A stretch of 64,000 nt of DNA from Thermoanaerobaculia bacterium (GCA_036009605.1 DASYLL010000012.1:4810-68809), one strand, 5' to 3'; positions 1,677 through 57,710 are shown, counted from the stretch's first letter. The notes: a model not told the origin generated them from the letters alone. Numbers and translations: made by a program.

Positions 1677-2086
1677 TTCTTCGCGTCCGCTTCGGGAACC
1701 ACCGGCGTCGCGTCCTCGAGCGTGATCGTCACGACCTGCGATTCGCCGAACGTGCGATTGCCGAGGCGCAGAACCCCTTCGACCGTCGGCCGACGCGGGA
1801 TGGGCGGCAGCACGATGTCCTTCTTCCAGATCACGGCGACGGAATCGAACGGCAGGTCGTGCTCTTCGACGCCGTGCGGATCCTCATGCTCGAAACGCGT
1901 GAGAAAGAGGCCGTTCTCGATACGTGGATGATCGACCGCATAGCCGCGCAGCCGCACGCGTTTGCCGTCGAGACTCTTCATCTCGTCTGTGAACGTCAGG
2001 CCTTCCGCACGGATCGATGCATAGAACTTCTCGAAGCTGACGACAGGAGCCAGAAGCAAAGCGATAGCGAGGACGAATGTGCTCAT
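1673..2086 (-). CDS. Exported hypothetical protein (137 aa)
   Basis: ORF 1673..2134, trimmed to the internal ATG at 2086 preceded by GGAGA. Signal-like MSTFVLAIALLLAPVV. Same strand as, and 58 nt downstream of, the phosphatase gene. Confidence 0.55.
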   Translation of the reverse strand: MSTFVLAIALLLAPVVSFEKFYASIRAEGLTFTDEMKSLDGKRVRLRGYAVDHPRIENGLFLTRFEHEDPHGVEEHDLPFDSVAVIWKKDIVLPPIPRRPTVEGVLRLGNRTFGESQVVTITLEDATPVVPEADAKK

Positions 2087-2143
2087 GAGTGTCTCCGGAA
2101 ACGAATGACGGAGACCCTTGCGAGCCTCCGTCATTGCGCGTCA

Positions 2144-4159: not shown

Positions 4160-4387
4160 CGTGTACCTGCCTTTTTTGCGTGTCGTGTCGAGACGACGCA
4201 CGATGCATCGCACGATGGAAGGGGCAGTTCACGGCGAGGTGAAATCGAAGCCAAGGTGAGACGTCGAATGTGCGGACGCAGCAGCGCTGCGGATGGGGCG
4301 TGATTCCCGTGTAAAGAAGGGTTCCGTTCCTTCTCGCGGCCGCTGGTCCTCCCCTGCCTGCGCCCGCCGCGGGTCTACACTGTCGCG

Positions 4388-7300
4388 GTGAAGCGCGCGC
4401 TGTTCCATTGCGCCCTGTTGATCATCGCGCGTACGTCGCTCGCGCTCGACCCTTCCCACAACATTTCGCAGTACGGCCACACCGCCTGGCGGGTTCGTGA
4501 TGGTCATTTTCCCGCCGCCGTCACTTCGATCGCGCAGACGGGCGACGGCTATCTGTGGGTCGGAACCGATGGCGGCTTGTTGCGTTACGACGGAGTTCGG
4601 TTCGAGCTGTGGGTTCCCCCCGGAGCGATGGAGTCTCCGAGTCGCGTCGTCGCGCTCCTCGGCGCGAGCGATGGCAGTCTCTGGATCGGCACGAACAGTG
4701 GCCTGGCGCAATGGAATCGAGGCCGCTACACCGTGCATGCAACGGCCGGCCGCTTCGGGTCGCTTCTCGAGGACCGCAGTGGAACCGTCTGGGCCGGGCG
4801 TACGCGTGGACGCGGGTTGCCTCCGCTCTGCCGTGTCGAGCAAGGCCAGTTGCGATGCTTCGCGGCACCCGGAAACCCGTCACTGGGATTCATCAGCGCG
4901 CTTCATGAAGATCGCGATGGAGAACTGTGGATGGGCGGCGCCGGAGGAATCTGCCGGTGGCGTAGAGGGAATCCGGAATGCTTCCCGATCCCCGAGCTCC
5001 TCACACGCATGAACAAGACCGGAGTGTTCCGCATCGGCCACGACGCGGAAGGCGTGCTCTGGGTCGACTCGGCCAACTTCGGCGCACAGCGACTCCTCGG
5101 AGGAAAGTGGTCGAAGGGTGAGATCGCGCCGGTCTTCGCGCTGACACTCGATCGGGCCGGCAGTTTCTGGATCGGGACGCAGGAAGAGGGACTCATCCGC
5201 CGTATCAGCGCCCGCGTCGAACGATTCACGGAAGCGGACGGCCTGTCCGGGGATTCCGTTGTCAACGTGCTCGAAGATCGCGAAGGAAACGTCTGGGTCG
5301 CCACTACGAGCGGTCTCGACCGATTCCGCGATGTGAAGGTCGCCACCGTGACGACGCGGGAAGGCCTGCCGTTTCGGCATGTTGGCGCGGTGACGAGCTC
5401 GTCGAAGGGCGGAGTGTGGCTGGCGAACCATCGGACGTTGGTTCGCATGATGGACGCCCGCTCGTTACCCGCGGTCGTACGGCCGCCCGGCGCGGAGACG
5501 GCCAGTCTGTTCGAAGACTCGCGAGGCCGGCTCTGGGTGGGTGTCGACGAAGGCCTCGCGTCGTTCGTGGATGGTCGCTTCTCGATCATCACTCTTCCGG
5601 ATGGCTCGAGAACCGGAGTGGTTCTCTCGATGGCGGAAGATCGCGATAGCGATCTGTGGCTCACGACCACGCACGCGACGTATCTGTTGCTGCGCATCCG
5701 CGACGGCCGGGTGATCGAGACCGTTCCTCGCGATGCGATCGGAGTTCCCTCCGTGCTGCTCGCAGCGCATGCGGAGAGCGGTGTCTGGCTCGGCGCGCGC
5801 GACGGACGGTTGCTTCTGTACCGATCCGGTCGAGTCGTGTCACGCCTGAGAAGTCCCGGCGATGTCGAGCTCCGCGACCTCTTCGTCAACGGCCGCGGAA
5901 CGTGGGCGGTTACCAACCGCGGGCTGCTGCTCTACCGTGAAGATCACGTACACGCTTTCGGCATACGCAGCGGGCTCGCCTGTCAGGACCTCGACGCGGC
6001 TGTGGAAGCTGGTGACGGCGCGATCTGGCTCAAAGGCTCGTGCGGTCTCATGAGGGTTGGCCCGCGCGAGCTGGACACATGGGCCGCGGATCCCACGCGA
6101 CGCGTGGCGGTACGCACCCTCGACGCCTTCGATGGCGTGCAGGCCGGAGTGACTCCGTTCGCACCCCGTGCTGCGAGGTCGAATGACGGCCTCCTCTGGT
6201 TCGCGATCGATGCCGGAGGTCTGCAGGTTCTCGATCCATCACGACTCGACCGACGCTCCGATCCGCCGCCGGTGCAGATCCTGCGCGTCGTTGCGGATCG
6301 CAAAAGCTATGACATTCAGCGCGAGCTGCGGCTCCCGGCGCTCACGCGCGATCTCGAGATTCACTACACGGCGTTGAGTCTCTCGATCCCGGAGAAAGTG
6401 CGCTTTCGCTGTCGGCTGGAAGGAGCGCATTCGGACTGGCGCGACGTCGGCACGCGGCGTGAGGCGTATTACGGCGACCTCGGACACGGAACGTACAGTT
6501 TCCGCGTCATCGCCTCCAATCACGGTGGAGCATGGAACGAGACGGGCGCCTCGATGGTAATTGTCATCCCTCCGGCGTTTCATCAGACCCGAACGTTTCT
6601 TCTGATTTGCATCGTCTCGGCCCTGACCCTGGTGATCCTGCTCCTGCGCTGGCGGATCCTCGTCATGCGCCGGCGCATGCAGCACGATTTTGAGGAAAGG
6701 CTCGACGAGCGGACGAAGATCGCGCGCGAGCTTCACGACCGCCTTCTTCAGGGTCTGGTCAGTACGTCGCTGCAACTCCACGTCGCACTGGAGGAATTGC
6801 CCCCGAAAGTCGAAGGGCGCGGACGCCTCGAACGGGTTCAGGACCTGATGGGTCGTGTCGTGGACGAAGGACGGCGCGTGCTCGAAGGTCTGCGCTCGGA
6901 GATCGCCGAGGATGATCTGGCGAACGCACTGTCGCATGTGAGCGCGGAGATCGGCCTGTCGCAGTCGCAGGTGCCGATCGTCGTCACAGGCGCGGTCAGG
7001 CCGCTGCGGCTGGACATTCGCGACGAGATCTATCAGGTGGCGCGCGAGGCACTCGTGAATGCCTTCCAGCACGCGCAGGCGGAGCGCATCGACGTGCGGC
7101 TCAACTACGGGTCGCGGGCCCTCAGGGTCGATGTTCGCGACGACGGCATCGGCATCGACGATGAAGTGCTGCGATCGGGACGCGAAGGCCATTGGGGTCT
7201 CTCAGGGATGCGCGAGCGCGCCGCGCAGATTGGCGCGAAACTGACGATTCGGACAACGAGAGCGAACGGCACGGAGGTCGAGATCGTGGTGCCGGCGCCG

Positions 7301-7399
7301 ATCGCCTACGAGGATCATCGCGGCTCGGTCCGGACGCGATTTCTGCTCCGGCGTGTCCCGCGTGAAATCGCGAATCGGTCGAGACTCACAGATGGATGA
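4388..7399 (+). CDS. Sensor histidine kinase with large N-terminal beta-propeller/Y_Y_Y-type sensor, one TM, HisKA_3 and HATPase_c
   Basis: GTG start. Repeated G.LWVGT/GLxRF propeller motifs, Y_Y_Y-like segment (YSFRVIASNHGGAWNE), TM FLLICIVSALTLVILLL. H-box IARELHDRLLQG, ATPase DDGIGI...HWGLSGMRERA. Confidence 0.85.
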   Translation: MKRALFHCALLIIARTSLALDPSHNISQYGHTAWRVRDGHFPAAVTSIAQTGDGYLWVGTDGGLLRYDGVRFELWVPPGAMESPSRVVALLGASDGSLWIGTNSGLAQWNRGRYTVHATAGRFGSLLEDRSGTVWAGRTRGRGLPPLCRVEQGQLRCFAAPGNPSLGFISALHEDRDGELWMGGAGGICRWRRGNPECFPIPELLTRMNKTGVFRIGHDAEGVLWVDSANFGAQRLLGGKWSKGEIAPVFALTLDRAGSFWIGTQEEGLIRRISARVERFTEADGLSGDSVVNVLEDREGNVWVATTSGLDRFRDVKVATVTTREGLPFRHVGAVTSSSKGGVWLANHRTLVRMMDARSLPAVVRPPGAETASLFEDSRGRLWVGVDEGLASFVDGRFSIITLPDGSRTGVVLSMAEDRDSDLWLTTTHATYLLLRIRDGRVIETVPRDAIGVPSVLLAAHAESGVWLGARDGRLLLYRSGRVVSRLRSPGDVELRDLFVNGRGTWAVTNRGLLLYREDHVHAFGIRSGLACQDLDAAVEAGDGAIWLKGSCGLMRVGPRELDTWAADPTRRVAVRTLDAFDGVQAGVTPFAPRAARSNDGLLWFAIDAGGLQVLDPSRLDRRSDPPPVQILRVVADRKSYDIQRELRLPALTRDLEIHYTALSLSIPEKVRFRCRLEGAHSDWRDVGTRREAYYGDLGHGTYSFRVIASNHGGAWNETGASMVIVIPPAFHQTRTFLLICIVSALTLVILLLRWRILVMRRRMQHDFEERLDERTKIARELHDRLLQGLVSTSLQLHVALEELPPKVEGRGRLERVQDLMGRVVDEGRRVLEGLRSEIAEDDLANALSHVSAEIGLSQSQVPIVVTGAVRPLRLDIRDEIYQVAREALVNAFQHAQAERIDVRLNYGSRALRVDVRDDGIGIDDEVLRSGREGHWGLSGMRERAAQIGAKLTIRTTRANGTEVEIVVPAPIAYEDHRGSVRTRFLLRRVPREIANRSRLTDG

Positions 7400-8009
7400 T
7401 GCCGCGACGCAGGCCGATGGCGACCGCTTCGGTGCGGTCCCTCGCACCAAGCTTCTCCATCACGTGCCGGACGTGAATCTTCACGGTCATCTCGGTAATG
7501 CCGAGGGTCGCGGCGATCTCGCGATTCCGGTTGCCGCTCGCCATGGAAGACAGGACCTCGAGCTCGCGGGCCGTCAGCGCCGCCGCGGCCAGATTTTCGG
7601 CGAGATGGGTGGCCACATCGGCAGGGATCCGCGTCAGGCCGCGATGAACGTTGCGGATTGCATCGAGCAACTCGCGCGGAGGCGTGCTCTTGAGCATGTA
7701 GCCACGCGCTCCCGCGCGTAACGCGCGCTGAATCTCGACGTCTCCCTGGGATGTCGTGAACATGATCACGCGAGCACCCGAATCCTCCTTGCGAATGGCG
7801 ATGAGCGCGTCGATGCCACTGATGTCGGGCAGGCGGATGTCCAGCAGAGTGACGTCGGGCCGGTGTTCGCGAAACTGCTGGATTCCTTCGAGCCCGCTCG
7901 ATGCTTCCGCCACCAGGACCAGGTCTGCCTCTTTGGCGATCAGCGCGGCGATGCCCTCGCGCATCAGCGGATGATCGTCGACGCACAGAATGCGGATGCG
8001 GTCTGGCAT
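7386..8009 (-). CDS. NarL/FixJ-family response regulator (receiver + LuxR-type HTH)
   Basis: ORF 7386..8042, trimmed to MPDRIRILCVDDH (ATG at 8009). DVTLLDIRLPD receiver. C-terminal LTARELEVLSSMASGNRNREIAATLGITEMTVKIHV. Convergent with the kinase; 3' ends overlap by 14 nt. Confidence 0.9.
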   Translation of the reverse strand: MPDRIRILCVDDHPLMREGIAALIAKEADLVLVAEASSGLEGIQQFREHRPDVTLLDIRLPDISGIDALIAIRKEDSGARVIMFTTSQGDVEIQRALRAGARGYMLKSTPPRELLDAIRNVHRGLTRIPADVATHLAENLAAAALTARELEVLSSMASGNRNREIAATLGITEMTVKIHVRHVMEKLGARDRTEAVAIGLRRGIIHL

Positions 8010-8081
8010 GCGTGCACACTTTAATGCCGAGACGCCGCTCACTCAGATTCGAGCGGCGTCTCGTGAGAGTGCGAGGTGTGC

Positions 8082-8801
8082 TTACTTCCGCGCCGTGACC
8101 GTTTCTTCCCTGGCGGCCTTCTCGATCAGCGCCGCAACGGGTTTGGGCTGGGAGACGTACACGGCGTGGCTTCCGGCGACTTCTGTGACGGTCGAGCCGG
8201 CGCGTTTGGACATGAAGCGTTGCGCGGGCGGCGGAATCATCCGGTCGTCCGTCGCGACGAGATACCAGCTCGGCTTCGTCTTCCACGCCGGCTCCGTGAT
8301 CGCCCCGCTCAGCGCGTTGACTCCCCACGGCACCTGCGAGTCGGCCATGAACCGCGCCGTGTCCGCGTCCACGTCGGCCGCGAAGGAATCGCGGAACTTC
8401 GCCCTGTCCAACTGCAGGAACCCGTCGACCGGCGGCAGAATCGGCGGCACCGGCGCACCGGGCGGCGGATTCTGAATCAGCGTCGAGACCGACTCGCCAG
8501 CGTCCGGAGCAAATGCAGCAATGTAGACGAGCCCCTTCACCTTCGGATGGTTGCCAGCCTCCGTGATCACCACGCCGCCGTAGGAGTGGCCGACGAGAAG
8601 GACCGGGCCCTCCTGCGCGTCGACGATCCGCAGGGTCGCCGCCACGTCGTCAGCGAGGGACACGGTGGAGTTCTGGACCACGTAGACCTTATGACCGCTC
8701 TTTGTGAGGATGTTGTAGACGGGTTGCCATCCCGAGCCGTCCACGAATCCACCGTGAACGAGGACGATGGTCATCATTGCGAGAACCGATAATTGCGTCA
8801 T
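8082..8801 (-). CDS. Alpha/beta-hydrolase fold protein
   Basis: TIVLVHGGFVDGSGW oxyanion region and nucleophile elbow VGHSYGG. The true start may be the MM at 8777/8774. Confidence 0.75.
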   Translation of the reverse strand: MTQLSVLAMMTIVLVHGGFVDGSGWQPVYNILTKSGHKVYVVQNSTVSLADDVAATLRIVDAQEGPVLLVGHSYGGVVITEAGNHPKVKGLVYIAAFAPDAGESVSTLIQNPPPGAPVPPILPPVDGFLQLDRAKFRDSFAADVDADTARFMADSQVPWGVNALSGAITEPAWKTKPSWYLVATDDRMIPPPAQRFMSKRAGSTVTEVAGSHAVYVSQPKPVAALIEKAAREETVTARK

Positions 8802-46800: not shown

Positions 46801-48699
46801 ATGAAACGGGTTGCATTCGTGAAAAGCGATTCGAGCGGCCGCGAACATTTCGCGGCCGCCACGGATCTTCCGACCTTCCTCGCGCAAGCAGGCGAATTGA
46901 CGTGTGCGCAACGGCAACGGATCGTGGAGCAGGCGCTGATCCTGGTCGGAGAGAACTACGCGCACCTGCCGTTGAAGCGCGCCATGCACTCGATCGATCC
47001 CGTGCAGCGTCTGAGGTTGTTGCTTCAGACGCTGAAGGCGGCAGCGGAGCCCGACCAGCCGACCGAGATCGAGTTCCATCGCGAGATGACCGACATCTTC
47101 ATGTCGCTCCGCGATCTCCACACGAACTACCTCCTGCCCGCGCCGTACAACCAGATGACCGCTTTTCTGCCGTTCCTGGTGGAAGACTACGTTCACGCGG
47201 ATGGCCAGCGCGGATACGTCGTCTCGCACGTTGTAACCTGGTTCACGCATCCGACCTTCGTCCCGGGAGTGGAAGTCCTCCATTGGAACGGGATGCCGAT
47301 CGAGCGTGCGGTCTCCCAAAACGGGCAGCGGTATGCAGGCAGCAACCGAGAGGCACGACATGCCCGCGGCGTGGAGACCCTCACCATCCGCGCATTGCTT
47401 CTTGCACCGCCGCCTGATGAGGACTGGGTGATCGTCGGGTACGAGACCGGGACGGGCGAACGGCTGGAGATTCGGATGAACTGGCAGGTCACTCCGTCGA
47501 TCGCGAGCCGAGTCGATCCCGACTCCGCCGGTCGCGGGGCCTCGGTCGCGCTGGGCATCGACCTCGAGAACGAGATCATTCGCCGAATGCGGGCCGCGCT
47601 CTTTGCTCCCGAAGTCCTCGCCGCATCCCGCGAAACGGCAGCGCCGCTCGCAGCGCGCGATTCGCGCTATCCCGACATCTTCACTGCGAAGGAGGTCGTC
47701 ACTCCCTCGGGAACGTTCGGCTACCTCCGCATTCGGACGTTCAATCACTGGCCGCCCGAGCAGTTCGTCGGAGAGTTTCTTCGGCTGATCGCCCTTCTCC
47801 CGCAACGCGGGCTCATCATCGACGTCCGCGGCAACGGCGGCGGCGTCATCATGAATGGAGAACTGATCCTGCAGACGCTCACGCCACGGACCATCGAGCC
47901 GGAGCCGGTCCAGTTCATCAACACGCCTCGCAATCTCGAGATCTGTCGCCGCAACGGGCCGCAGTCGCAATGGACCGATCTTTCCGCATGGCGGGACTCG
48001 ATCGCTCAGGCGCTCCAGACCGGCGCCGTCTTCTCCGCGGGCTTTCCGATCTCCGATCCCGAAGAGTGCAACGCCATCGGCCAACGCTACTTCGGACCGG
48101 TCGTTCTGATCACCGACGCACTCTGCTACAGCACGACCGATATCTTCGCCGCAGGCTTTCAGGATCACGGCATCGGCACCGTCCTCGGCACAGACGGCAA
48201 CACAGGTGCGGGAGGCGCCAACGTCTGGGAACATCAATCCTTCGTAAGCGACATCCTTCCCGATTCCGGATACGAAGAATTGCCGAACGGAGCCGGCATG
48301 CGGATCTCCATTCGCCGGACGCTGCGCGTCGGCGGACACGCAGGAGCTCCCGTCGAGGACCTCGGCGTGATCCCGCAAGAGCGCCACTTCCTCACTCGCA
48401 ACGACGTCCTCCACGACAACGAAGATCTCATCCGAAACGCGGCTTCTCTGCTGGCCGCTCGCCCAGTGCGCGCGCTGAAGGTGAAGTTCGAGCGCATCTC
48501 CTCGACACACGCGAAAGTCATCGCAGAAACAGAAGGAATGACGCGCCTCGACGTTTATCTGGACGACCGCCCCAACCAATCCATCGAAGTGGAAAACGGC
48601 CTCGTGCAGTTCGACGCTCCGCTGGCCCGTACTCTGGAGCTGCGTGGATTCGACGGCGGACAACTGGCGGCGCGGTATCGGACAGAGATTCACGCATAA
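46801..48699 (+). CDS. Peptidase S41 family protein (CPAF/tail-specific-protease-like), no detectable signal peptide
   Basis: GLIIDVRGNGGG motif and LITDALCYSTTDIFAAGFQD Ser region. 25 nt after the metalloprotease gene. Confidence 0.75.
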   Translation: MKRVAFVKSDSSGREHFAAATDLPTFLAQAGELTCAQRQRIVEQALILVGENYAHLPLKRAMHSIDPVQRLRLLLQTLKAAAEPDQPTEIEFHREMTDIFMSLRDLHTNYLLPAPYNQMTAFLPFLVEDYVHADGQRGYVVSHVVTWFTHPTFVPGVEVLHWNGMPIERAVSQNGQRYAGSNREARHARGVETLTIRALLLAPPPDEDWVIVGYETGTGERLEIRMNWQVTPSIASRVDPDSAGRGASVALGIDLENEIIRRMRAALFAPEVLAASRETAAPLAARDSRYPDIFTAKEVVTPSGTFGYLRIRTFNHWPPEQFVGEFLRLIALLPQRGLIIDVRGNGGGVIMNGELILQTLTPRTIEPEPVQFINTPRNLEICRRNGPQSQWTDLSAWRDSIAQALQTGAVFSAGFPISDPEECNAIGQRYFGPVVLITDALCYSTTDIFAAGFQDHGIGTVLGTDGNTGAGGANVWEHQSFVSDILPDSGYEELPNGAGMRISIRRTLRVGGHAGAPVEDLGVIPQERHFLTRNDVLHDNEDLIRNAASLLAARPVRALKVKFERISSTHAKVIAETEGMTRLDVYLDDRPNQSIEVENGLVQFDAPLARTLELRGFDGGQLAARYRTEIHA

Positions 48700-51600
48700 C
48701 TGTACGGCAGCGTTCGCACGGCATCCGGCGAACCGTTGGCCATCTCGACGAAGCGACAGAGACCATTCACGAGTCGCATCTGCTTGGGCGTCTTGCACGC
48801 AACGTCGAGCAGTCGGGGGCTGGCGACGACCGTTGCGACGCAGCGAGCGCGCGAGATCGCAACGTTCAATCGATTGCGGCTGAAGAGAAACTCGATGTCG
48901 CGCGGAAGCTCGGCGGCGCTCGACGTGGCCATGCTGAAGAAAACGATCTGCGCCTCTCTCCCCTGAAATTTGTCGACCGTTCCGACCGGCACATCGCTCA
49001 ACCCAGCCTCGGAAAGGACATTCGTGATGCGACGCACTTGCGCGTTGTACGCGGCAACGATGAGGAAATTCGAGGGACGCAGCGGCGACACTCTTCCCTT
49101 CGAGTCGGTGAACGTGCCGCGCAGCATGCGTCGAATCTCTGCCGCGATTGCCTGCGCTTCTTCTTCCGAGGACTGTGCGTTGCCGACGTGCTCGACGGCC
49201 AGGAATCGCAATCCGGTTTCCACCACCCCGCCGATTGTCACGGCTTGATTCGCACACTCATCTGCAGATTCGAGTCGCGAGTCGTAGACGACCTCAGAAA
49301 CGAACTCGCAGACCTTCGGATGCATGCGCCGCGTGTGTCCGAGGAAGATGCCGCGATCGGGCGGAACGGTTGCGTGCTTGCCGAGAAGGTGTTCGAGAAC
49401 GGAGCCGCCGGCGCCGTCGGGATGTGCGCCTTGCGAGACCTGCGCGAGCTGCAACGGATCGCCGAGGAGGATCACATTGCGGGCGGCGGTCGAGACGGCG
49501 ATTGCGTTTGCGAGCGACACCTGTCCCGCTTCGTCGATGAAGAGATAGTCGAGAGTGCGGTCCATCGCGTCATCCGAGAAGAGCCAGGCAGTGCCGGCGA
49601 CGAGCGCGATCGCGGGATCGGCGCAAGCGCCGTTGCTGCTCGTCGGCTCGATCATCGGATTCGGCAGTTTCGACACGAAGATCGAATCCTCGCCGGTGCT
49701 GCTCTTCTTCAAACCGCGGAACCAGAAGTTTTTCTCGCGCGCGAACTCTTCGACCCGCTCGAGCAGATTGTGAATGGCCTTGTGTGAGTTCGATGTCACG
49801 CCGACGCGCTTTCCGGCGCGCAGCAGATCGACGATGACGTGCGCGCCGGTGTACGTCTTGCCGGAGCCCAGAGGTCCCTGCACAAACAGATACGAGTCGT
49901 CGAGATTGCGCGTGACCTCGGCGGGATCGTGCAGTGCCTCACCTTCCGCGAGACCGCGCACGCGCGGCGCGTGATTGAGGAGGATGTCGAGACCGGCGCG
50001 ATAGGGGGTACCGGACTCGACGACTGCTTTCGCGAAACGACGGATGGCTTTGCGAATGGGACCGCTGTTGATCGAGGGCTTCGGAATGAGGGCGATGGGA
50101 TGCGGCTGCTGCGCGAGCTTCGGTCCGCGACGAAGCGTGAGCACACCGGTCGCATCCTCGAGCGACTCGATCTCGCCCGCACTCTCGCCGTCGCGCGCGT
50201 CGCACACGACGTCGCCTTCATCAAACTTGTGTTCCTGCGGTTTGAAGCGGTACGTGAAGAGCAGTGACTTCTTCATCTTCACCGGCGCGACGGTCTCGTC
50301 GAGCATCAATCCCGCGATCGATTCGCTGTCCTCGAACAGCTCATCGGCCGTCATCTTCTGCCGCGCGAAGTACCACCACCACGCCGGCCGTTCTTCGCGC
50401 CGGTGGTAATAAAGAAGATGCGCGAGCAGCGGCTGCTCATCGATCAGTTGCGCGTGCAGAGCGGCGGTTTCTTCATCCTCGTCGCGTCGCTCTTCCTTCA
50501 GCGGCTGCGCCTGCTCCGAATCCTTCCACGCGACGTCGGCAGGCTTGATTGCCGCGAGCCACCGCTGCAGGCCGAGCACGGAAATGCAGTCCTCGCGGTT
50601 GTATCGCTCGATCGAGACGAGCATCGCCGGATCGTTCGTCTCCAGCCATTGCTCGTACGCGAGCACCGCGCCGCCCGCGTCGGCAACGCCTTCTTCTTCG
50701 CGTTGAAAGTAAAACGTCTCGACCTTCTTGAGGCCGTATCCGGAGTGCGAGATGCGCATCGACTGACGCACGATCGCAGAGAGATCGACGAACGCCTCCT
50801 GTCGCAGCAGATCATCGAGCTCGCGTTCGCGCGTGCCGTGTCGTCCCGTCAATCTTTTGAGCGTGGCCACTTCCATCGCACCGTAGTGATAGATGTGCGC
50901 ATCGGGATCCGCCGCGCGACGCGCCACGAGAAAGTCCATCACCTCGGCGAACGCCTCAGCCTCCGCCGCAGCGTTGTGAGCCCACCATGCGCGGTACTCG
51001 CTCTCGCTCCATGCAACGCCGAAGAGGTACGTCAGTCCCTCGCCGACGAACGGATCGCCTTCGACATCGAAGAACACATCGCCCGAGGACGGCCTCGGCA
51101 GACGGAGAAAGCCGCGCTCCGATTCCTGCGGCAGCAATTCGAACGTGTGAATGCCTGTACGCCGATGTTCGAGTTGCAAGCGCGCCTGATGCGCGAGGAC
51201 GCCGAGGTTCTCCGGCTGAATCCGAGGAACGCGCAACTCCGGCGGCACCTCGGCAAGCGCAGTCAGCGTCGTTACGCCCCCTTTCTCCAGCCGCGTGGCC
51301 TGCGTGCGGCGGATGTTCGCAACGAGTGAAAGATGGTCGACGTTGTTCCAATGCTTCCAGCAATGTGCCGACCAATCGCAGAGCGCGCAGAACTCGACCG
51401 GATACGGCGCGGGCGCGTCGCCACGTCCGATGAATGCTTCGACGGATGCGCGGACATGACGGTAGTACGCGGCGTACTCGGCGACGATGAAGGAGACGCG
51501 CTCGTTCGTGCCGAGGATGATGTGCATCGACTCGGGAGCGACGCCCTGCAGGCGTGCGAGGTGCGCGCTGTAATCGGACAGCTGTAGAAGAAAGTGAGCC

Positions 51601-52040
51601 TTCACGGCGCGCGCGAGTTTCGTGTCGAGGACTTCGTAACTCCAGTCGCCGAGGATCGAAGGGCGTTCGACGCGCTCGAGGAGATCGGCGTAGCCAACCC
51701 AGCGGCCGTCGAAGAACGCGGCCTGATAGATCGCGTCCGCGCCGCCGCGCATCGCGTCGAGCGTCGCGGCTTCGGCGTGGCGCAGATCCGACGGAAGCCA
51801 GTCGGGACGATCGATGGTAACGACGCGTTTGCCGCTTGCATGGAGAGTGGCCAGATACGCGTGCTCGTGCTCATCGCCCTTCTCTGCGATCAGATCGGTC
51901 CATGCAGACGGAGGCCGTGTCGCGAGCGGTTTGATCACGCCGCTCTTGGTCCCGTGATCGAGAAACGTCGCATGCTCGCAGCGCACGTACTTCGTGAGAT
52001 CGCCCGTGGCGAAGAGCAGAGTCGAACCGGCGTATCGCAT
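48690..52040 (-). CDS. RecB-like nuclease (TM0106-type PD-(D/E)xK + RNase-H-like exonuclease domain) fused to an SF1 DNA2/Upf1-like helicase (1116 aa)
   Basis: ORF 48690..53147, trimmed to MRYAGSTLLFATGDLTKYVRCEH (ATG at 52040). YEVLDTKLAR nuclease core, FFDVEGDP...YNREDC exonuclease-like. Helicase Walker A GPLGSGKTYT, Walker B FIDEAGQ, later motifs VDKFQGREAQIV, RLNVAISRAR. Confidence 0.85.
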   Translation of the reverse strand: MRYAGSTLLFATGDLTKYVRCEHATFLDHGTKSGVIKPLATRPPSAWTDLIAEKGDEHEHAYLATLHASGKRVVTIDRPDWLPSDLRHAEAATLDAMRGGADAIYQAAFFDGRWVGYADLLERVERPSILGDWSYEVLDTKLARAVKAHFLLQLSDYSAHLARLQGVAPESMHIILGTNERVSFIVAEYAAYYRHVRASVEAFIGRGDAPAPYPVEFCALCDWSAHCWKHWNNVDHLSLVANIRRTQATRLEKGGVTTLTALAEVPPELRVPRIQPENLGVLAHQARLQLEHRRTGIHTFELLPQESERGFLRLPRPSSGDVFFDVEGDPFVGEGLTYLFGVAWSESEYRAWWAHNAAAEAEAFAEVMDFLVARRAADPDAHIYHYGAMEVATLKRLTGRHGTRERELDDLLRQEAFVDLSAIVRQSMRISHSGYGLKKVETFYFQREEEGVADAGGAVLAYEQWLETNDPAMLVSIERYNREDCISVLGLQRWLAAIKPADVAWKDSEQAQPLKEERRDEDEETAALHAQLIDEQPLLAHLLYYHRREERPAWWWYFARQKMTADELFEDSESIAGLMLDETVAPVKMKKSLLFTYRFKPQEHKFDEGDVVCDARDGESAGEIESLEDATGVLTLRRGPKLAQQPHPIALIPKPSINSGPIRKAIRRFAKAVVESGTPYRAGLDILLNHAPRVRGLAEGEALHDPAEVTRNLDDSYLFVQGPLGSGKTYTGAHVIVDLLRAGKRVGVTSNSHKAIHNLLERVEEFAREKNFWFRGLKKSSTGEDSIFVSKLPNPMIEPTSSNGACADPAIALVAGTAWLFSDDAMDRTLDYLFIDEAGQVSLANAIAVSTAARNVILLGDPLQLAQVSQGAHPDGAGGSVLEHLLGKHATVPPDRGIFLGHTRRMHPKVCEFVSEVVYDSRLESADECANQAVTIGGVVETGLRFLAVEHVGNAQSSEEEAQAIAAEIRRMLRGTFTDSKGRVSPLRPSNFLIVAAYNAQVRRITNVLSEAGLSDVPVGTVDKFQGREAQIVFFSMATSSAAELPRDIEFLFSRNRLNVAISRARCVATVVASPRLLDVACKTPKQMRLVNGLCRFVEMANGSPDAVRTLPYSYA

Positions 52041-52118
52041 TGCACACGGATCGACACGAACGCGCGGCGACGGTGGCGTGACGCCCCGTTTTCGCGCGGA
52101 GCGTGTCTTGACGATGGA

Positions 52119-54236
52119 ATGTTGCCGACGGAGCTCGAGCGTGTGTTGCAGGCGTCGATCGCACGCCGACAGTGGACCGACCGCGGAAAACGCCGGGCGG
52201 AGAGCCCGTCGTTCCAGTGGATCGCGCAAGGCGGCAGCGCGAACGTGCATGGCTATGCGACAGGCGACTTCGTCTACATCGGCAACGGCGCTGGGACCGA
52301 ACCTTCGGCGATCGATCCGCGTCTGCCGATCGACGCCGCGTATCCGAACACGTCCGGCGAACAGATGCCGTACTGGCCGGCCTATGACTCGATCCCCGCG
52401 GAATGCCGTGCCGCGTATCTGCAGTGGCTGCACGGCGGACGCACGGATCCGTACGTCGCCATCGGATACGTCTTCGTCTTCTTCTACGGCCTCGAACGCC
52501 GCGTCTACGACTTCATCGCGCGCCGCGGCTCGAACGCGGACGAAGTTCTCGCCATCGCGAACGAAGTGGCTCGTCTGTACGCGCTGCACGCGAACCGCAG
52601 CGGCTCGTTCGAACGCTACGCGGAAGAGCTGCTCGATCTGATCGAGTTGATCGAACCGCGCGCGCGAACGATTCCGCGTGAGATCACGATCCAGCCCGGA
52701 TACGGCGTCCCGCGCCGCATCGCTATCGCACTCGGTGAGCTTGCGGTTGCAGAACAGCCGGTTCCCGCAGGACTCGCGCTCGATTGGCTGCGGTCGATCT
52801 GGTATTTCAACATGCCGGCCATACGCTGCGCGGACGAATTCGAACTGCTCTTTCACATCCGCTACGCGAAACGTTTCGGGCAGGGACTTTATCTGCAGCC
52901 GGGCCGCACGTTCCTCGACTTCACCTACCAACCCGCCAGTGCCGCACTCGACGCGATCCGCGTCAACCAGCGCGACATTCCCGACGTCACGCAGCTCGCT
53001 CGACCACGCACGAAACTCACCGAGCTCACCCAGGAATGCAGCAGCGCACTCGACGCCTTCAGCCGTCTCCTCGGCAAGAATCCCAGCGCACGCGAATCGC
53101 TCGCGGCATTCGCACTGCTGCCCGATGAGCTGATCGAGGGCACGCATTCCGCCGACGCGAAATCACTCGCTGCGCTCGTCACCTCGCGTCTCGACGAGCA
53201 CGGCCGCGCGCAACTCGGCGCGGCTGAGCTGCTGCAATTCGTGCGCATCGCGAAGCCGGAGAAGATCGCGAAGAACGAAGCGATGCTGCTCGCGCAGGCG
53301 CTCGAAAAACTCGGCTACGGCATCGAGCCCGACGTGCGCCTCGGCGGTCCGACGTTCGAGAGCGACGGCCGCGTGATCGTTTTTCGCCGCCTCCCCGACT
53401 GTCCGTCCACTGCATCGGATGAATACGCAACGGCCACGATCTGCATGCGCCTCGGCACGATGGTCAGTGCCGCCGACGACGACGTTTCTGAACAGGAACG
53501 CGCACTCCTCGAGCGACACATCGCCGAAGCGCTCCTGCTCTCCGCGGGCGAACGCCAACGCCTCCGCGCGCACCTCGCGTGGCTGATCGAAACAAATCCC
53601 GGAACCGCGGGCATGAAGAAACGCCTCGCCGCACTGTCGCACGACGCGCGGCATCACATCGGACGACTGCTCGTCAGCATCGCCACGACCGACACGCGCG
53701 TCGATCCGCGCGAGATGAAGATCCTCGAAAAGCTCTACGACCTCATCGGACTCAATGAGACCGATCTCTATCGCGACGTCCACTCCGCGCAATCCGCGGA
53801 CGATGAGCCGCTCGTGATCGACACGCCCGCGTCAGTCTCGAAGCGATTCACCATTCCTCCGAAGCCGCAGCCAACACCCGGCCTCGACATGTCGCGCGTC
53901 CGACTCCGCATCGCGGAAACGCGCCAGGTGTCCGCGCTTCTCGGCAGCATCTTCGTCGAAGACGAAGCACCTGCGCGCATCGCACCCATCGCTGCGCAAG
54001 CAAACACGATCGGCACACTCGATGCCGCGCATTCGGAACTGCTGCGCCGTCTTGCGCAATGCGAGAGCTGGACGCGCGACGAAGTCGAGCGCATCACGTT
54101 GGAACTGTCGCTGATGACCGACGGCGCGCTCGAAGCGATCAACGACTACGCCTACGCGACCGCGGATGAGCCGTTCTGGGAAGACGACGATCCGATCGCG
54201 ATCAACGCCGCAGTAGCGAGGAACTTCATTCGATGA
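52119..54236 (+). CDS. TerB-N / TerB / TerB-C three-domain protein (SngA-like)
   Basis: ORF 51594.., trimmed to ATG at 52119. TerB-N: MPYWPAYDSIPAECRAAYLQWLHGGRTDPYVAIGYVFVFFYGLERR. Central TerB-like helical bundle: MVSAADDDVSEQERALLERHI...VSIATTDTRVDPREMKILEKLYDLIGL. TerB-C: LDAAHSELLRRLAQCESWTRDEVERI...INDYAY. Confidence 0.8.
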   Translation: MLPTELERVLQASIARRQWTDRGKRRAESPSFQWIAQGGSANVHGYATGDFVYIGNGAGTEPSAIDPRLPIDAAYPNTSGEQMPYWPAYDSIPAECRAAYLQWLHGGRTDPYVAIGYVFVFFYGLERRVYDFIARRGSNADEVLAIANEVARLYALHANRSGSFERYAEELLDLIELIEPRARTIPREITIQPGYGVPRRIAIALGELAVAEQPVPAGLALDWLRSIWYFNMPAIRCADEFELLFHIRYAKRFGQGLYLQPGRTFLDFTYQPASAALDAIRVNQRDIPDVTQLARPRTKLTELTQECSSALDAFSRLLGKNPSARESLAAFALLPDELIEGTHSADAKSLAALVTSRLDEHGRAQLGAAELLQFVRIAKPEKIAKNEAMLLAQALEKLGYGIEPDVRLGGPTFESDGRVIVFRRLPDCPSTASDEYATATICMRLGTMVSAADDDVSEQERALLERHIAEALLLSAGERQRLRAHLAWLIETNPGTAGMKKRLAALSHDARHHIGRLLVSIATTDTRVDPREMKILEKLYDLIGLNETDLYRDVHSAQSADDEPLVIDTPASVSKRFTIPPKPQPTPGLDMSRVRLRIAETRQVSALLGSIFVEDEAPARIAPIAAQANTIGTLDAAHSELLRRLAQCESWTRDEVERITLELSLMTDGALEAINDYAYATADEPFWEDDDPIAINAAVARNFIR

Positions 54237-55522
54237 TCAAACCAAAGCATCGCGAATCGATCATTCAATCGCTGCGCGCCGGTGTCGTGCCGCGCGCGGG
54301 ACAGCAACACATCCAGGTCGGCCGCCACGACGAAGTGAAGGCGCTCGTCACGGACATCGATCGCGTGGCAGACGCCGGCTCATCGATCCGCTTCATCATC
54401 GGCGAGTACGGTTCCGGCAAAACGTTCTTCCTGAATCTCATCCGCTCCATTGCGCTCGAACGCAACCTCGTCACGATCAACGCCGACCTCTCGCCCGATC
54501 GCCGCCTGCACGCGACCGGCGGACAGGCGCGATCGCTGTACGCGGAGTTGATGCGCAATCTCGCGACGCGCTCGAAACCGGATGGCGGCGCGTTGGCGAG
54601 CGTCGTCGAGAAGTTCGTCTCCAGCGCACTCGCCGAAGCGCGCGCCGCGGAAATCGGCGTCGACGCGGTAATTCGCACGCGACTGGCATCGCTCCAGGAG
54701 CTCGTCGGCGGCTACGACTTCGCGCACGTCATCGAGGCGTACTGGCGCGCACACGACAGCGGCAACGAAGACCTGAAGGAATCGGCGCTGCGCTGGCTGC
54801 GCGGCGAGTACACGAGCAAAACCGACGCGCGCACGCACCTCGGCGTCCGCACGATCGTCAGCGATGCGAACGTCTACGATCAGCTGAAGCTCTTCTCGCG
54901 CTTCGTACGTCTCGCGGGATACGGCGGATTGCTGATCGTGCTCGACGAGCTCGTGAATCTCTACAAGCTCGCGAACACGCAGGCGCGCAACAGCAACTAC
55001 GAACAGATCCTGCGCATTCTCAATGACATGCTGCAGGGATCCGCCGAAGGCATGGGCGTCCTCCTCGGCGGCACGCCGGAGTTTCTGCTCGACACGCGCC
55101 GCGGTCTCTACAGCTACTCGGCGCTGCAATCGCGACTCGCGCAGAACCAGTTCGCGACGAACGGTCTCGTCGACTACAGCGGTCCCGTATTGCCGCTCTC
55201 GCAGCTCACAAAGGAAGACCTGTACGTGTTGCTCGCGAACATCCGCAACGTATACGCGCTCGGCGATGCCTCGAAATACCTCATCCCCGACGACGCGCTC
55301 GAGGCGTTCATGCATCACTGCTCGACGCGCATCGGCGACGCCTATTTCCGCACGCCGCGCAACACCGTGACCGCATTCGTGAGTCTGCTCTCCGTGCTCG
55401 AACAGAACGCCGAAGCGAAGTGGCACGAGCTGCTCGGAGCGGTCACGATTCCGACCGACCGCAATCCCGATCTCGAAGGCGTCGCGGACGACGATGACGA
55501 TCTCGCCTCCTTCCGGCTCTGA
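54233..55522 (+). CDS. P-loop ATPase, DUF2791/BrxD-like (SngB-like)
   Basis: The start overlaps the upstream stop (ATGA). Walker A GEYGSGKTF, Walker B GLLIVLDELVNL. ~430 aa. Confidence 0.8.
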   Translation: MIKPKHRESIIQSLRAGVVPRAGQQHIQVGRHDEVKALVTDIDRVADAGSSIRFIIGEYGSGKTFFLNLIRSIALERNLVTINADLSPDRRLHATGGQARSLYAELMRNLATRSKPDGGALASVVEKFVSSALAEARAAEIGVDAVIRTRLASLQELVGGYDFAHVIEAYWRAHDSGNEDLKESALRWLRGEYTSKTDARTHLGVRTIVSDANVYDQLKLFSRFVRLAGYGGLLIVLDELVNLYKLANTQARNSNYEQILRILNDMLQGSAEGMGVLLGGTPEFLLDTRRGLYSYSALQSRLAQNQFATNGLVDYSGPVLPLSQLTKEDLYVLLANIRNVYALGDASKYLIPDDALEAFMHHCSTRIGDAYFRTPRNTVTAFVSLLSVLEQNAEAKWHELLGAVTIPTDRNPDLEGVADDDDDLASFRL

Positions 55523-57710
55523 CGGCTCGTCGTCGTTCGAGTGGCTGCACGAGCGCGTGCGCCGCTGGATCTGGGACCAGCAATGGTCCGAGCTCCGCGA
55601 CGTGCAGGAGACGGCCATCCGCACGATCCTCGGCACCAACGGCGACGCGATCATTACCGCTGCGACCGCAGCCGGAAAAACAGAAGCCGCGTTTCTGCCG
55701 ATCTGCTCGACGCTCGTCGACGATGAGACTTCGACCGGCGTGCAGGTGTTGTACATCGGACCGCTGAAGGCACTGATCAACGATCAATGGCGCAGGCTCG
55801 ACGGTCTGTGTGAATCGCTTGAGATTCCGGTGCATCGCTGGCATGGCGATGTGACCTCGTCCGCGCGCATGCGACTGATCCGGCAACCCGACGGCATCCT
55901 GCTGATCACACCCGAATCTCTCGAAGCGATGTTCGTACGACGCGGCTCCGAAGTCGGGCGCATCTTCGCGGGATTGCGCTTCGTCGTCATCGACGAACTG
56001 CACGCATTCATCGGCAGCGAGCGCGGCATGCAGTTGCAATCGCTGCTGCATCGCATCGAGCTCGTGTTGCACCGGACCGTGCGAAGAATCGGACTGAGCG
56101 CGACGCTCGGTGACATGACCATTGCCGCCGATTTTCTTCGTCCTCCGAATCGCCGCACGACACCACCGGAAGTCGTGAAATCCGAGGAAGCGGGCGCCGG
56201 GATGAAACTGAAGCTCTACGGTTTCCGTCGCGCGCTGAAGCCCGAGATCGAAGTTCCCGAGGAAGACGAAGAAGACGAAACCGCGCGCTCGATCGCACAG
56301 CATCTCTTCAAAAACCTGCGTGGCGCAAACAATCTCGTCTTCGCAAACGCGCGCGGCAGCGTCGAAAAGTACACCGATCTTCTTTCGCGCATGTGCGAGT
56401 CCGCGTCCCTGCCGCAGGAGTTCTTCGCGCATCACGGCAGCCTCTCGCGCGAGCTGCGCTTCGACGTCGAAGATCAACTCAAGCGGGGCGATCGACCGCT
56501 CACCGTGATCTGCACGAGCACGCTCGAAATGGGTATCGACATCGGTGCCGTCACGAGCGTCGCGCAGATCGGCCCGCCGCCGAACGTCGCCTCGCTACGC
56601 CAACGCCTCGGCCGCTCCGGTCGTCGCGGCGAGCCCGCGGTGCTGCGCCTGTACATCGAAGAAGCGACCGTCACCGAACGCAGCTCGCCACAGGAAGCGA
56701 TCCGCGCCACGCTCGTCGAGACGATCGCGATGATGAACCTTCTGCTCGAGAAATGGGTCGAACCGCCGCCTGCCGGCATGCTGCACGGCTCGACGTTCGT
56801 GCAGCAATTTCTCTCGCTCATCGCGCAACACGGCGGCGTGTCTCCCTCGGACGCCTACGCGATGCTCTGCGCCGGCGGACCGTTTCACGAGCTATCGAAG
56901 CCAATGTTCATGGGCCTGCTGCGCACGTTGAGCTCGCACGAGCTCATCGAGCAAACGAGCAATCAGGAGCTGCACCTCGGCGCGAAGGGCGAGAAGTACG
57001 TCAACACGCACGACTTCTACACGGCCTTCTTCACCGCCGACGAATATCGCCTCATGACCGCGGGAACGAACCTCGGCACGCTGCCGATCGTGAATCCGAT
57101 CGACGAAGGCTCGTTCCTCATCTTCGCGGGACGGCGATGGCGCATCGTTTCCGTCGATCAGGAGAAGCGCGTCATCGATCTCGTCGCGGCAGGCGGAGGT
57201 CGCGTGCCGATCTTCGACGGTGCGTCGCGCGGCAACGTACACGATCGCGTGCGTCGCGAGATGCTCGCCATCTACACGACCACGGACGTTCCGCGTTACC
57301 TCGACGCGACCGCCTCGGATCTCCTGCACGAAGGACGCGAAAACTTCGCGCGCTATGCACTCGATCGCACGTCGTTCATCCGCGCCGGTGATGGTGCGCT
57401 GTACTTTCCATGGTACGGCAGCCTGGCGATGAACACGCTCGTGCAGCAGTTCGCGGCGCGCGGCATTCGCGTCTCGGCCGAAGGTCCCGCGATCGCTGTC
57501 GAGAAATGGTCGCCGGAGAAACTGCGCGACGCAGTCGACGCGTGCGAGAGCGAGCGGCCGGTCGACACACTCGCTCTCGCGGCAAACGTCAAAAACAAAG
57601 AACAGGAAAAGTGGGATTGGGCACTCGACGAAGAGACGCTCTGCGCGTCGTATGCGAGCCGAAGCCTCAGTCGAAATCCCCTCAGAGGCGCGCTTCGAAA
57701 ATCAGATTGA
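55494..57710 (+). CDS. Lhr-like DExH-box SF2 helicase (SngC-like)
   Basis: Motif I AATAAGKTEAAFLP, motif II VVIDELHAF, motif III LSATLG, motif VI QRLGRSGRRG. Overlaps the ATPase gene by 29 nt. Confidence 0.85.
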   Translation: MTISPPSGSDGSSSFEWLHERVRRWIWDQQWSELRDVQETAIRTILGTNGDAIITAATAAGKTEAAFLPICSTLVDDETSTGVQVLYIGPLKALINDQWRRLDGLCESLEIPVHRWHGDVTSSARMRLIRQPDGILLITPESLEAMFVRRGSEVGRIFAGLRFVVIDELHAFIGSERGMQLQSLLHRIELVLHRTVRRIGLSATLGDMTIAADFLRPPNRRTTPPEVVKSEEAGAGMKLKLYGFRRALKPEIEVPEEDEEDETARSIAQHLFKNLRGANNLVFANARGSVEKYTDLLSRMCESASLPQEFFAHHGSLSRELRFDVEDQLKRGDRPLTVICTSTLEMGIDIGAVTSVAQIGPPPNVASLRQRLGRSGRRGEPAVLRLYIEEATVTERSSPQEAIRATLVETIAMMNLLLEKWVEPPPAGMLHGSTFVQQFLSLIAQHGGVSPSDAYAMLCAGGPFHELSKPMFMGLLRTLSSHELIEQTSNQELHLGAKGEKYVNTHDFYTAFFTADEYRLMTAGTNLGTLPIVNPIDEGSFLIFAGRRWRIVSVDQEKRVIDLVAAGGGRVPIFDGASRGNVHDRVRREMLAIYTTTDVPRYLDATASDLLHEGRENFARYALDRTSFIRAGDGALYFPWYGSLAMNTLVQQFAARGIRVSAEGPAIAVEKWSPEKLRDAVDACESERPVDTLALAANVKNKEQEKWDWALDEETLCASYASRSLSRNPLRGALRKSD

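Follow-up and report, generated by a model that had tools for sequence, protein, structure and literature searches.

A divergent TM0106-family nuclease-helicase gene and a mirror control element accompany the Shango operon in one family of Thermoanaerobaculia

Shango is a validated anti-phage system without a known effector. Its published form consists of three genes, none encoding a nuclease (Millman et al. 2022, bioRxiv 10.1101/2022.05.11.491447; Johnson et al. 2022, bioRxiv 10.1101/2022.11.11.516204), and this three-gene form protects E. coli and P. aeruginosa. We analysed a 64,000-nt stretch of DNA from a Thermoanaerobaculia bacterium (GCA_036009605.1 DASYLL010000012.1:4810-68809; hereafter the window, meaning this whole stretch), in which an intact, canonical Shango sngABC operon adjoins, across a 78-bp gap, the gene for a 1116-aa triple enzyme here named FUS. 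The locus differs from published Shango in this fourth, divergently transcribed Dna2-like gene, which is co-inherited with the other three in one acidobacterial family only. The mirror-image control element in the gap is new here, and no description of it or of the FUS-Shango cassette was found in the literature. We lean towards reading FUS as a defence enzyme that degrades DNA and can stand alone, and that Shango has acquired as a partner under joint regulation, one it can dispense with, rather than as a universal or obligatory subunit.

The TM0106 family and its architecture were known already. FUS is a full member of the long form of TM0106/COG2251 (TIGR03491), with no architectural difference, and has in common with it a Cas4/DUF83-like nuclease, a PF13482 domain and tandem AAA domains; the descriptions of this family that we found include neither a Shango cassette nor a mirror control element. 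PF13482/COG2251 has been placed among the 3'-5' exonucleases as RNase H-like family F.13, and the same study noted a DUF83 nuclease in COG2251 and, frequently, tandem AAA domains (Majorek et al. 2014, PMC3985635). Homologues of FUS form more than 7000 clusters, the named ones being called 'RecB family nuclease' or 'TM0106 family...'; annotations and literature thus agree with the original prediction that the family is widespread, without an assigned role and named only 'TM0106 family RecB-like putative nuclease'. A literature search returned no study of helicase-bearing TM0106/TIGR03491 proteins and nothing relevant linking PF13482 with defence.

The eukaryotic/archaeal Dna2 (PDB 5EAN, 5EAW) resembles FUS in carrying an iron-sulfur (Fe-S) PD-(D/E)xK nuclease, a stalk with barrel and an SF1B helicase in the same order. 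However, its template modelling score (TM-score) to FUS is only 0.36-0.39, phmmer similarity is confined to FUS aa 966-1070 at the helicase C-terminus and does not include the nuclease, and FUS has an additional DEDDy exonuclease domain that Dna2 lacks. Their settings differ as well, Dna2 serving essential replication and repair whereas FUS is patchy, plasmid-borne and defence-linked. Another comparison is with Nhi of S. epidermidis (SERP2475), a proven stand-alone anti-phage enzyme (bioRxiv 10.1101/776245), which likewise unites an N-terminal PD-(D/E)xK nuclease and an SF1B-like helicase in one polypeptide and occurs patchily, on plasmids and near defence genes. Nhi differs in its DUF2075/PF09848 motor and in having neither an Fe-S cluster nor a DEDDy domain; PF09848 gave no match to FUS at E <= 0.01. 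FUS is analogous to Nhi and not homologous beyond the superfamily. The PADLOC matches of FUS were MkoA, MkoC, DpdJ and PDC-S37 only, all in the helicase region, with no Nhi model among them (the release may hold none). Membership of Mokosh (MkoA/MkoC) was rejected, these matches spanning only FUS aa 812-1087, the C-terminal half of the helicase; Dpd and PDC-S37 were set aside likewise, their matches being restricted to the helicase.

Two further comparisons concern helicases coupled to nucleases. Hachiman HamAB (Cell 2024, PMC12278908) resembles the present arrangement in coupling a DNA-surveying helicase to an effector nuclease, and SngC groups with the defence SF2 helicases in that study. 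Hachiman is nevertheless a two-protein complex of unrelated families, and FUS-Shango coupling is conjecture here. RecBCD, AddAB and AdnAB, multi-subunit and broadly conserved housekeeping enzymes, degrade DNA ends with a RecB-family nuclease (bearing an Fe-S cluster in AddB) and SF1 motors. FUS differs from them as a single chain with an added 3'-5' exonuclease and a patchy distribution.

The minus-strand frame that ends at window position 48690 is open as far as 53147, and a start at 52040 yields 1116 aa, in agreement with 17 aligned homologues, which begin with MR[FLY]... and are 1081-1177 aa long. Above this start the frame continues through 369 extra open codons (52041-53147, minus strand) antisense to sngA, which accounts for the 1485 aa of the open reading frame list; this upstream part is an antisense shadow over sngA, typical of high-GC DNA. 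The sngA gene starts at ATG 52119, in frame with its TerB_N match, and gives strong TerB_N, TerB and TerB_C matches. With starts at 52119 and 52040, the intergenic gap is 52041-52118, exactly 78 nt, so that the boundaries first predicted for the FUS gene, the TerB gene and the gap were all re-derived from frames and homologues. PADLOC assigned the adjoining operon, predicted as 'Shango-like', to SngA (E 5e-83), SngB (E 1e-180) and SngC (E 3e-263), matches beyond chance. The features, with the evidence for each, are as follows.

48690-52040, minus strand: FUS gene, TM0106/COG2251 long form (translation, family matches, 17-homologue alignment, single genome copy)
51345-52040, minus strand: FUS aa 1-232, Cas4/RecB-type PD-(D/E)xK nuclease with four-cysteine Fe-S signature (invariant residues, inside the TIGR03491 match)
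51096-51344, minus strand: FUS aa 233-315, conserved helical linker (DHLSLVANIRR...), putatively helix-hairpin-helix-like (alignment and model)
50550-51095, minus strand: FUS aa 316-497, DEDDy-type 3'-5' exonuclease fold, RNase_H_2, PF13482 (PF13482 match and invariant residues)
49941-50549, minus strand: FUS aa 498-700, helical stalk and beta-barrel between exonuclease and motor (AlphaFold and Foldseek)
48735-49940, minus strand: FUS aa 701-1102, SF1B (Upf1/Dna2/IGHMBP2-like) helicase core (AAA matches, PDB matches, motifs)
52041-52118, no strand: divergent control region, 78 bp (sequence)
52053-52078, minus strand: left promoter-like unit CGCCAC-N15-GTGTC in minus-strand reading (conserved, with invariant N15 in all type-1 cassettes)
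52082-52107, plus strand: right promoter-like unit CGCCCC-N15-GTGTC (conserved; also upstream of sngA in the Shango-only genomes G015 and G083)
52119-54236, plus strand: sngA (TerB_N-TerB-TerB_C), short form, 705 aa (Pfam, PADLOC)
54233-55522, plus strand: sngB (BrxC/BrxD-type ATPase), 429 aa (Pfam, PADLOC)
55494-57710, plus strand: sngC (DEAD/DEAH helicase, SngC/BrxHI type), 738 aa (Pfam, PADLOC)

Linkage of FUS to Shango in the window's taxonomic family is lineage-specific but very tight. Many of the genomes surveyed are metagenome-assembled genomes (MAGs). Long or partial forms of FUS were present in 18 of the 121 genomes of the family (~15%), and a SngB search of the same genomes detected Shango in 15, with FUS adjacent on the same contig in 11 of these. 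Nine genomes (G000, G108, G102, G064, G110, G094, G073, G088 and G096) have the divergent arrangement, with FUS-sngA gaps of 78-190 nt, and two (G103, on the same contig as locus L001, and G069) have sngABC followed co-directionally by FUS after ~47 nt. The flanks of the cassette differ in every genome, with no recurrence of the genes that flank it in the window, and in each case the cassette ends exactly with the four genes; the four genes thus sit at different sites as one block, mobile as a unit. Identity to the window in the divergent cassettes was 86-91% for SngB, 73-81% for SngC, 59-67% for SngA and 60-72% for FUS, falling in the co-directional ones to 69-70%, 54%, 40-41% and 51-52%, respectively. 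Metagenome relatives at 64% and 63% identity also stand divergently to Shango, with new flanks; a relative at 54% does not.

The FUS and Shango phylogenies match, and the four genes co-diversify. A phylogeny of 92 FUS proteins groups the divergently linked copies in one clade with support 100 and places this clade within another that is specific to the family; the family's Shango is monophyletic in the SngB+SngC tree (support 99). Two subgroups recur in both trees, the window with G064 and G108, and G102 with G088, and both cut across host genera. A clean comparison of filled and empty sites was not obtained, orthologues of the left-flank S41 peptidase in G114 and G100 lying in rearranged regions and the right-flank methyltransferase having no close orthologue. 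In the window itself, genes for peptidases, a channel, a methyltransferase and regulators lie outside the unit, and base composition is flat; these surroundings are ordinary, so the unit is four genes and not a large defence island, which corrects the 'defence island' named as one option in the original prediction. Both borders are tight, without spare DNA, repeats or integrase in the window: the 3' end of the convergent S41 peptidase gene overlaps FUS by 10 nt (48690-48699), and that of the convergent methyltransferase gene overlaps sngC by 29 nt (57682-57710).

Two mirror copies of one bipartite element nearly fill the 78-bp gap, which gives direct sequence support to the co-regulation supposed from the head-to-head arrangement. 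Alignment of the gaps of nine divergent cassettes revealed a nested palindrome, GACAC-N15-GTGG(CG)-N0-9-(CG)CCAC-N15-GTGTC, between whose fixed letters the bases vary freely; we read it preferably as CGCCAC-N15-(C/G)GTGTC in two copies placed back to back, one facing each gene. Ten cassettes contributed 19 units, nine giving both mirror units and one (P0051) a single unit, its second copy having one mismatch. Inner spacing was 15 nt in 19/19 units, whereas the distance between mirror units ranged from 0 to 9 nt, a combination that argues for two separate bipartite sites and not for one dimer-bound operator. The window's element spans 52053-52107. One GTGTC box ends 12 nt short of the start codon of FUS and the other 11 nt short of that of sngA; in 9 of the 10 cassettes the box lies 8-12 nt from the FUS ATG. 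In the Shango-only genomes G015 and G083 the sngA-facing unit is kept, and the FUS-facing unit is mutated (G015) or respaced to N14 (G083).

No second copy of the full nested palindrome (52053-52107) occurs in the 6.28-Mb genome, the half-site CGCCAC/CCAC-N15-GTGTC is not enriched there at N15 over other spacings, and the idea of a large regulon was dropped because the half-site shows no genome-wide enrichment and the full palindrome occurs only at the cassette. FUS-only loci lack the mirror element. Even when one mismatch is allowed, the motif does not occur ahead of sngA in type-2 cassettes, other Acidobacteriota or Pseudomonas; a universal Shango operator is ruled out, since other Shango lineages lack the motif. 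A scan of 51800-52400 detected no sigma-70 consensus promoters and no terminators. The element would represent two divergent promoters of an alternative, ECF-like (extracytoplasmic function) sigma type with near-leaderless transcripts, its boxes being, as we assume, similar to ECF -10 boxes. The sngA leaders of L089 (G096), L085 (G110) and L086 (G094), and in part those of L087 (G073) and L083 (G102), contain a further conserved block, GGATTTTCCGTTTTCCGTCACTCC, downstream of the mirror element; it is absent from the window's 78-bp gap.

These observations bear on the view that FUS and Shango are two unrelated defence modules, hitch-hiking as neighbours without functional or regulatory coupling, with the palindrome belonging to Shango only. 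Consistent with it, the palindrome persists in Shango-only G083, the cases within the family may trace to one event, and on a broad scale Shango adjacency (2 of 80 diverse FUS loci) is about what is expected of a random defence-island neighbour, McrBC (6 loci) and WYL (9 loci) being commoner partners. However, the left unit is oriented towards FUS, at a distance of 8-12 nt from the start codon in nearly every cassette, and is altered where FUS has been lost; the linkage is kept at SngA identities ranging from 38% to 100% and despite a changed gene order; and the cassette edges coincide with the four genes throughout. Uncoupled hitch-hiking is thus quite unlikely in our view.

Within the family, FUS is probably dispensable to Shango, which remains intact where FUS has been lost or has decayed. 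The linked clade of the SngB+SngC tree includes the Shango-only genomes G015 and G083 as nested members, G015 retaining the first ~18 FUS codons and G083 the palindrome; both lost FUS secondarily. In G110 and G069 FUS is degraded beside an intact Shango. Several further matches with 'stops inside' FUS reflect natural stop codons, the window's FUS having a longer C-terminal tail, so that only these two are clearly degraded; G016 and G031 have split FUS matches with possible frameshifts.

Outside the family, a search of 400 genomes found FUS beside none of the nine other acidobacterial Shango loci (0/9). Among 301 Pseudomonas genomes, 27 carry Shango, 9 carry FUS and 4 carry both (odds ratio 9.4, p 0.005, uncorrected for phylogeny), and FUS lies within 5 kb of Shango in only one of the 27, convergently and with small genes between. 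Across 80 diverse FUS loci Shango was adjacent in two, namely the family member L001 and a Solirubrobacterales MAG (L024), whose FUS belongs to a different clade and whose FUS stop and sngA start are separated by 1 nt (TGAgATG); FUS has therefore joined Shango tightly at least twice. At L024 (15740-16979, 16936-20604) sngB is split in two frames, by a frameshift or an assembly error, and the sngC open reading frame encodes 1222 aa, with a C-terminus ~460 aa longer than usual. The PA14 paper on P. aeruginosa mentions a 'large multi-domain helicase' beside the Shango TerB gene, a possible FUS homologue. Taken with the published three-gene form, the scarcity of FUS at Shango loci outside the family indicates that FUS is not a general Shango component. 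The 'fourth component' option accordingly finds no support as a general part of Shango, and within this lineage an accessory partner is more probable than an obligatory subunit.

The stronger proposal, that FUS is the obligatory fourth subunit ('SngD') of a Shango subtype, would have SngABC sense infection and recruit or license FUS as the only nuclease, with neither part protecting alone. No nuclease is recognisable in Shango itself, whose mechanism has been described as unclear; the tight layouts number three (divergent at 78-190 nt, sngC to FUS at ~47 nt, FUS to sngA at 1 nt); the four genes co-diversify, move as a unit and have the mirror element in common; and all 11 examined FUS copies of the clade with at least 60% identity adjoin Shango. 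Yet Shango stays intact after FUS loss or decay in G015, G083, G110 and G069, the closest FUS-only relatives occupy other defence contexts, FUS is missing from 9/9 other acidobacterial Shango loci and from within 5 kb of 26/27 Pseudomonas loci, 78/80 diverse FUS loci lack Shango, and three genes suffice for protection in E. coli and P. aeruginosa. An obligatory subunit therefore seems unlikely.

Sequence and model analyses confirmed the three parts foreseen for FUS, namely a PD-(D/E)xK nuclease, an RNase-H-like exonuclease and a DNA2/Upf1-type helicase, through hidden Markov model matches and alignment; the motifs YEVLDTK, FFDVEGDP, YNREDC, GPLGSGKTYT and DEAGQ are all in the translation. TIGR03491 matched aa 13-495 with 258.2 bits (cut-off 97.45), PF13482 RNase_H_2 matched aa 322-495 with 91.2 bits (cut-off 22), and AAA_11, AAA_12 and AAA_30 SF1 helicase models matched aa 710-1074, with all helicase motifs intact. 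Conservation was assessed in an alignment of 18 sequences (FUS and 17 homologues). In the nuclease, four cysteines (C21, C218, C221 and C227; C...CxxCx5C) of Cas4/AddB/Dna2 type are invariant, as are D119, E136, D139, K141 and the QxxxY motif Q153/Y157; in the linker D235, H236, L237, V240 and A241 are invariant, with helices at 245-295 in the AlphaFold model. The DEDDy signature (D325, E327, D329, Y480, D484) is invariant and position 390 acidic (E390 in FUS), and the invariant helicase motifs comprise Walker A G722..K728-T729, DEAGQ 836-840, GDPxQL 860-865, TVDKFQG 1021-1027 and RLNVAxSRA 1057-1065. The Walker A motif of FUS reads GPLGSGKT (L724, codon at window 49866-49868) versus GPPGSGKT in at least 90% of aligned homologues, the GxxGxGKT core being intact.

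A PDB sequence search with FUS matched IGHMBP2, DNA2 and UPF1 and returned no solved structure of the FUS family. The AlphaFold model has a mean predicted local distance difference test (pLDDT) score of 81 and a predicted TM-score (pTM) of 0.71, and resolves the stalk and barrel into helices 516-569 and strands 587-653. Foldseek placed full-length Dna2 (5EAN/5EAW) first among PDB structures (E 8e-26), in a full-length alignment that includes the stalk and barrel, followed by the IGHMBP2 and UPF1 helicase cores; FUS is thus Dna2-shaped with an extra proofreading-type exonuclease. Its enzymatic activities are predicted from these domains.

FUS is single-copy in its 6.28-Mb genome and patchy elsewhere, occurring in 9/301 Pseudomonas species genomes (~3%) and, as homologues, on 68 of 72,556 plasmids, 25 of them conjugative; a search of 50,697 phage records detected none. 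The 80 loci, drawn from many phyla, have no universally conserved neighbour. Recurrent ones include a WYL-WCX regulator (9 loci, mostly divergent), McrB/McrC (6 loci) and an SbcCD-like pair with a giant Sacsin/NOV_C protein. PADLOC matches (E <= 1e-10) among the 131 immediate neighbours include WYL, ZacC, DrmD, BrxHI, mad3/8, DpdE, HNH and restriction-modification (R-M) enzymes, and two annotated plasmid contexts resemble defence islands. Pfam returned many ordinary genes, such as MFS transporters (8 cases) and peptidases. The neighbour check proposed earlier therefore found homologues that are patchy and often beside defence genes (WYL, McrBC, DISARM, Azaca, MADS, Dpd, R-M), and a conserved housekeeping context, named then as a possible refutation, was not seen among the homologues examined. 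The defence association of the family, judged from raw neighbour counts, is real but partial. Patchiness, plasmid carriage and frequent defence neighbours together point to a putative anti-phage or anti-plasmid effector capable of standing alone.

Individual loci add detail to this distribution. The FUS of Pseudomonas G292 (L106, 12263-15655) has its closest homologues, at ~47% identity, in Acidobacteriota and Chloroflexota and not in the proteobacterial clade, which suggests transfer between phyla. In the window's own family, the FUS-only locus L097 (G019, 3219-8350) encodes FUS in third place, behind HEPN_Swt1-DUF499 (1106 aa) and helicase-like (602 aa) proteins, and is a further candidate for a multi-gene defence context. 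Relatives without the long form carry short TM0106 proteins of ~500 aa (31-33% identity) with nuclease and exonuclease but without helicase, for example at G116:C61:104141-105595, G004:C30:64675-66117 and G032:C603:11035-12495.

As the mechanism of a captured, stand-alone-capable defence enzyme, we propose that FUS acts as a single-polypeptide, Dna2-shaped machine for processing DNA ends. It would load on DNA ends or single-stranded regions, its SF1B motor moving 5'->3' on single-stranded DNA and feeding the tracked strand to the N-terminal Cas4-type Fe-S PD-(D/E)xK nuclease, which would cut it, and the inserted DEDDy exonuclease would trim the 3' ends of the other strand. With two nucleases and a motor, both strands of linear, nicked or unwound phage or plasmid DNA could be destroyed. 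In one Thermoanaerobaculia family, a group of soil acidobacteria, FUS would then have been captured next to Shango, giving one mobile, co-inherited four-gene cassette. Because FUS and sngABC would be transcribed outward from back-to-back copies of the same element, they may be switched on together, and the fixed four-gene package with its common mirror control sequence suggests that FUS may be an added DNA-destroying arm of Shango. We infer the promoter nature of the element, the defence role and the cooperation with Shango.

Several points weigh against this picture of a captured defence enzyme. The mirror element fits no promoter consensus tried and is not enriched elsewhere, and it could be an operator rather than a promoter. 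Linkage in the family may stem from one or two ancestral events, so that the 11 cases are not independent and hitch-hiking of neighbouring systems is possible. About half of the immediate FUS neighbours across phyla are ordinary, which makes the defence-island association partial; WYL regulators are also known in DNA-damage responses; and the broad FUS tree (92 proteins) follows phyla fairly well, as would fit a long-resident accessory repair enzyme. On that last account, FUS would be an accessory end-resection machine of DNA repair or recombination, like RecBCD, AddAB or AdnAB, with no immune role and an incidental position beside Shango. Its Dna2-like architecture, the phylum-like tree, the many ordinary neighbours and the occurrence of WYL-WCX genes at 9/80 loci and of RmuC at 2 agree with such a role, WYL-WCX regulators including damage-response activators. 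Against it stand the restriction to ~15% of family genomes and 3% of Pseudomonas species with frequent loss and decay, carriage on plasmids including conjugative ones, the common defence neighbours and, at this locus, a control element held in common with an anti-phage operon. We consider a pure repair role very unlikely.

A bolder extension, which we entertain only tentatively, holds that a Shango subtype in this acidobacterial family finds its missing nuclease in FUS: infection would be sensed by the TerB protein together with the BrxD-like ATPase and SngC, which would hand DNA to FUS or unleash it, with expression from two mirror promoters of alternative-sigma type. Long TM0106 proteins would then be portable 'DNA shredders' serving various sensors, candidates being Shango here and WYL regulators or McrBC elsewhere. 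A lineage in which Shango is welded to a complete nuclease-helicase offers a testable handle on how Shango might destroy phage DNA. Long TM0106 proteins number in the thousands and are found across most bacterial phyla as well as on conjugative plasmids; proof of an immune effector role would make them a single-gene class of defence with wide occurrence, functionally analogous to Nhi and related to Dna2 as a bacterial cousin. The CGCCAC-N15-GTGTC element is a small target that could show how a mobile defence cassette switches on in Acidobacteria, whose promoters are little studied.

SngA itself occurs in two forms. The long form (1017-1092 aa) has a conserved N-terminal extension of ~300 aa, including a hydrophobic stretch that reads like two membrane helices and the motif LYANKDGSPDRR; the 705-aa SngA of the window is the short form, without the extension. 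Pfam scans of two full-length proteins of the long form gave no match ahead of TerB_N. The intervals noted for the extension, to be compared with window 52119, are as follows.

L082, 11847-12780: SngA N-terminal extension
L083, 7711-8641: SngA N-terminal extension
L086, 10158-11249: SngA N-terminal extension
L090, 15281-16423: SngA N-terminal extension
L091, 12475-13707: SngA N-terminal extension

A type-2-like Shango without FUS at L095 (G042, 1936-4167) is followed by a convergent AAA_13 ATPase gene (E 6e-134), of a family common in defence loci.

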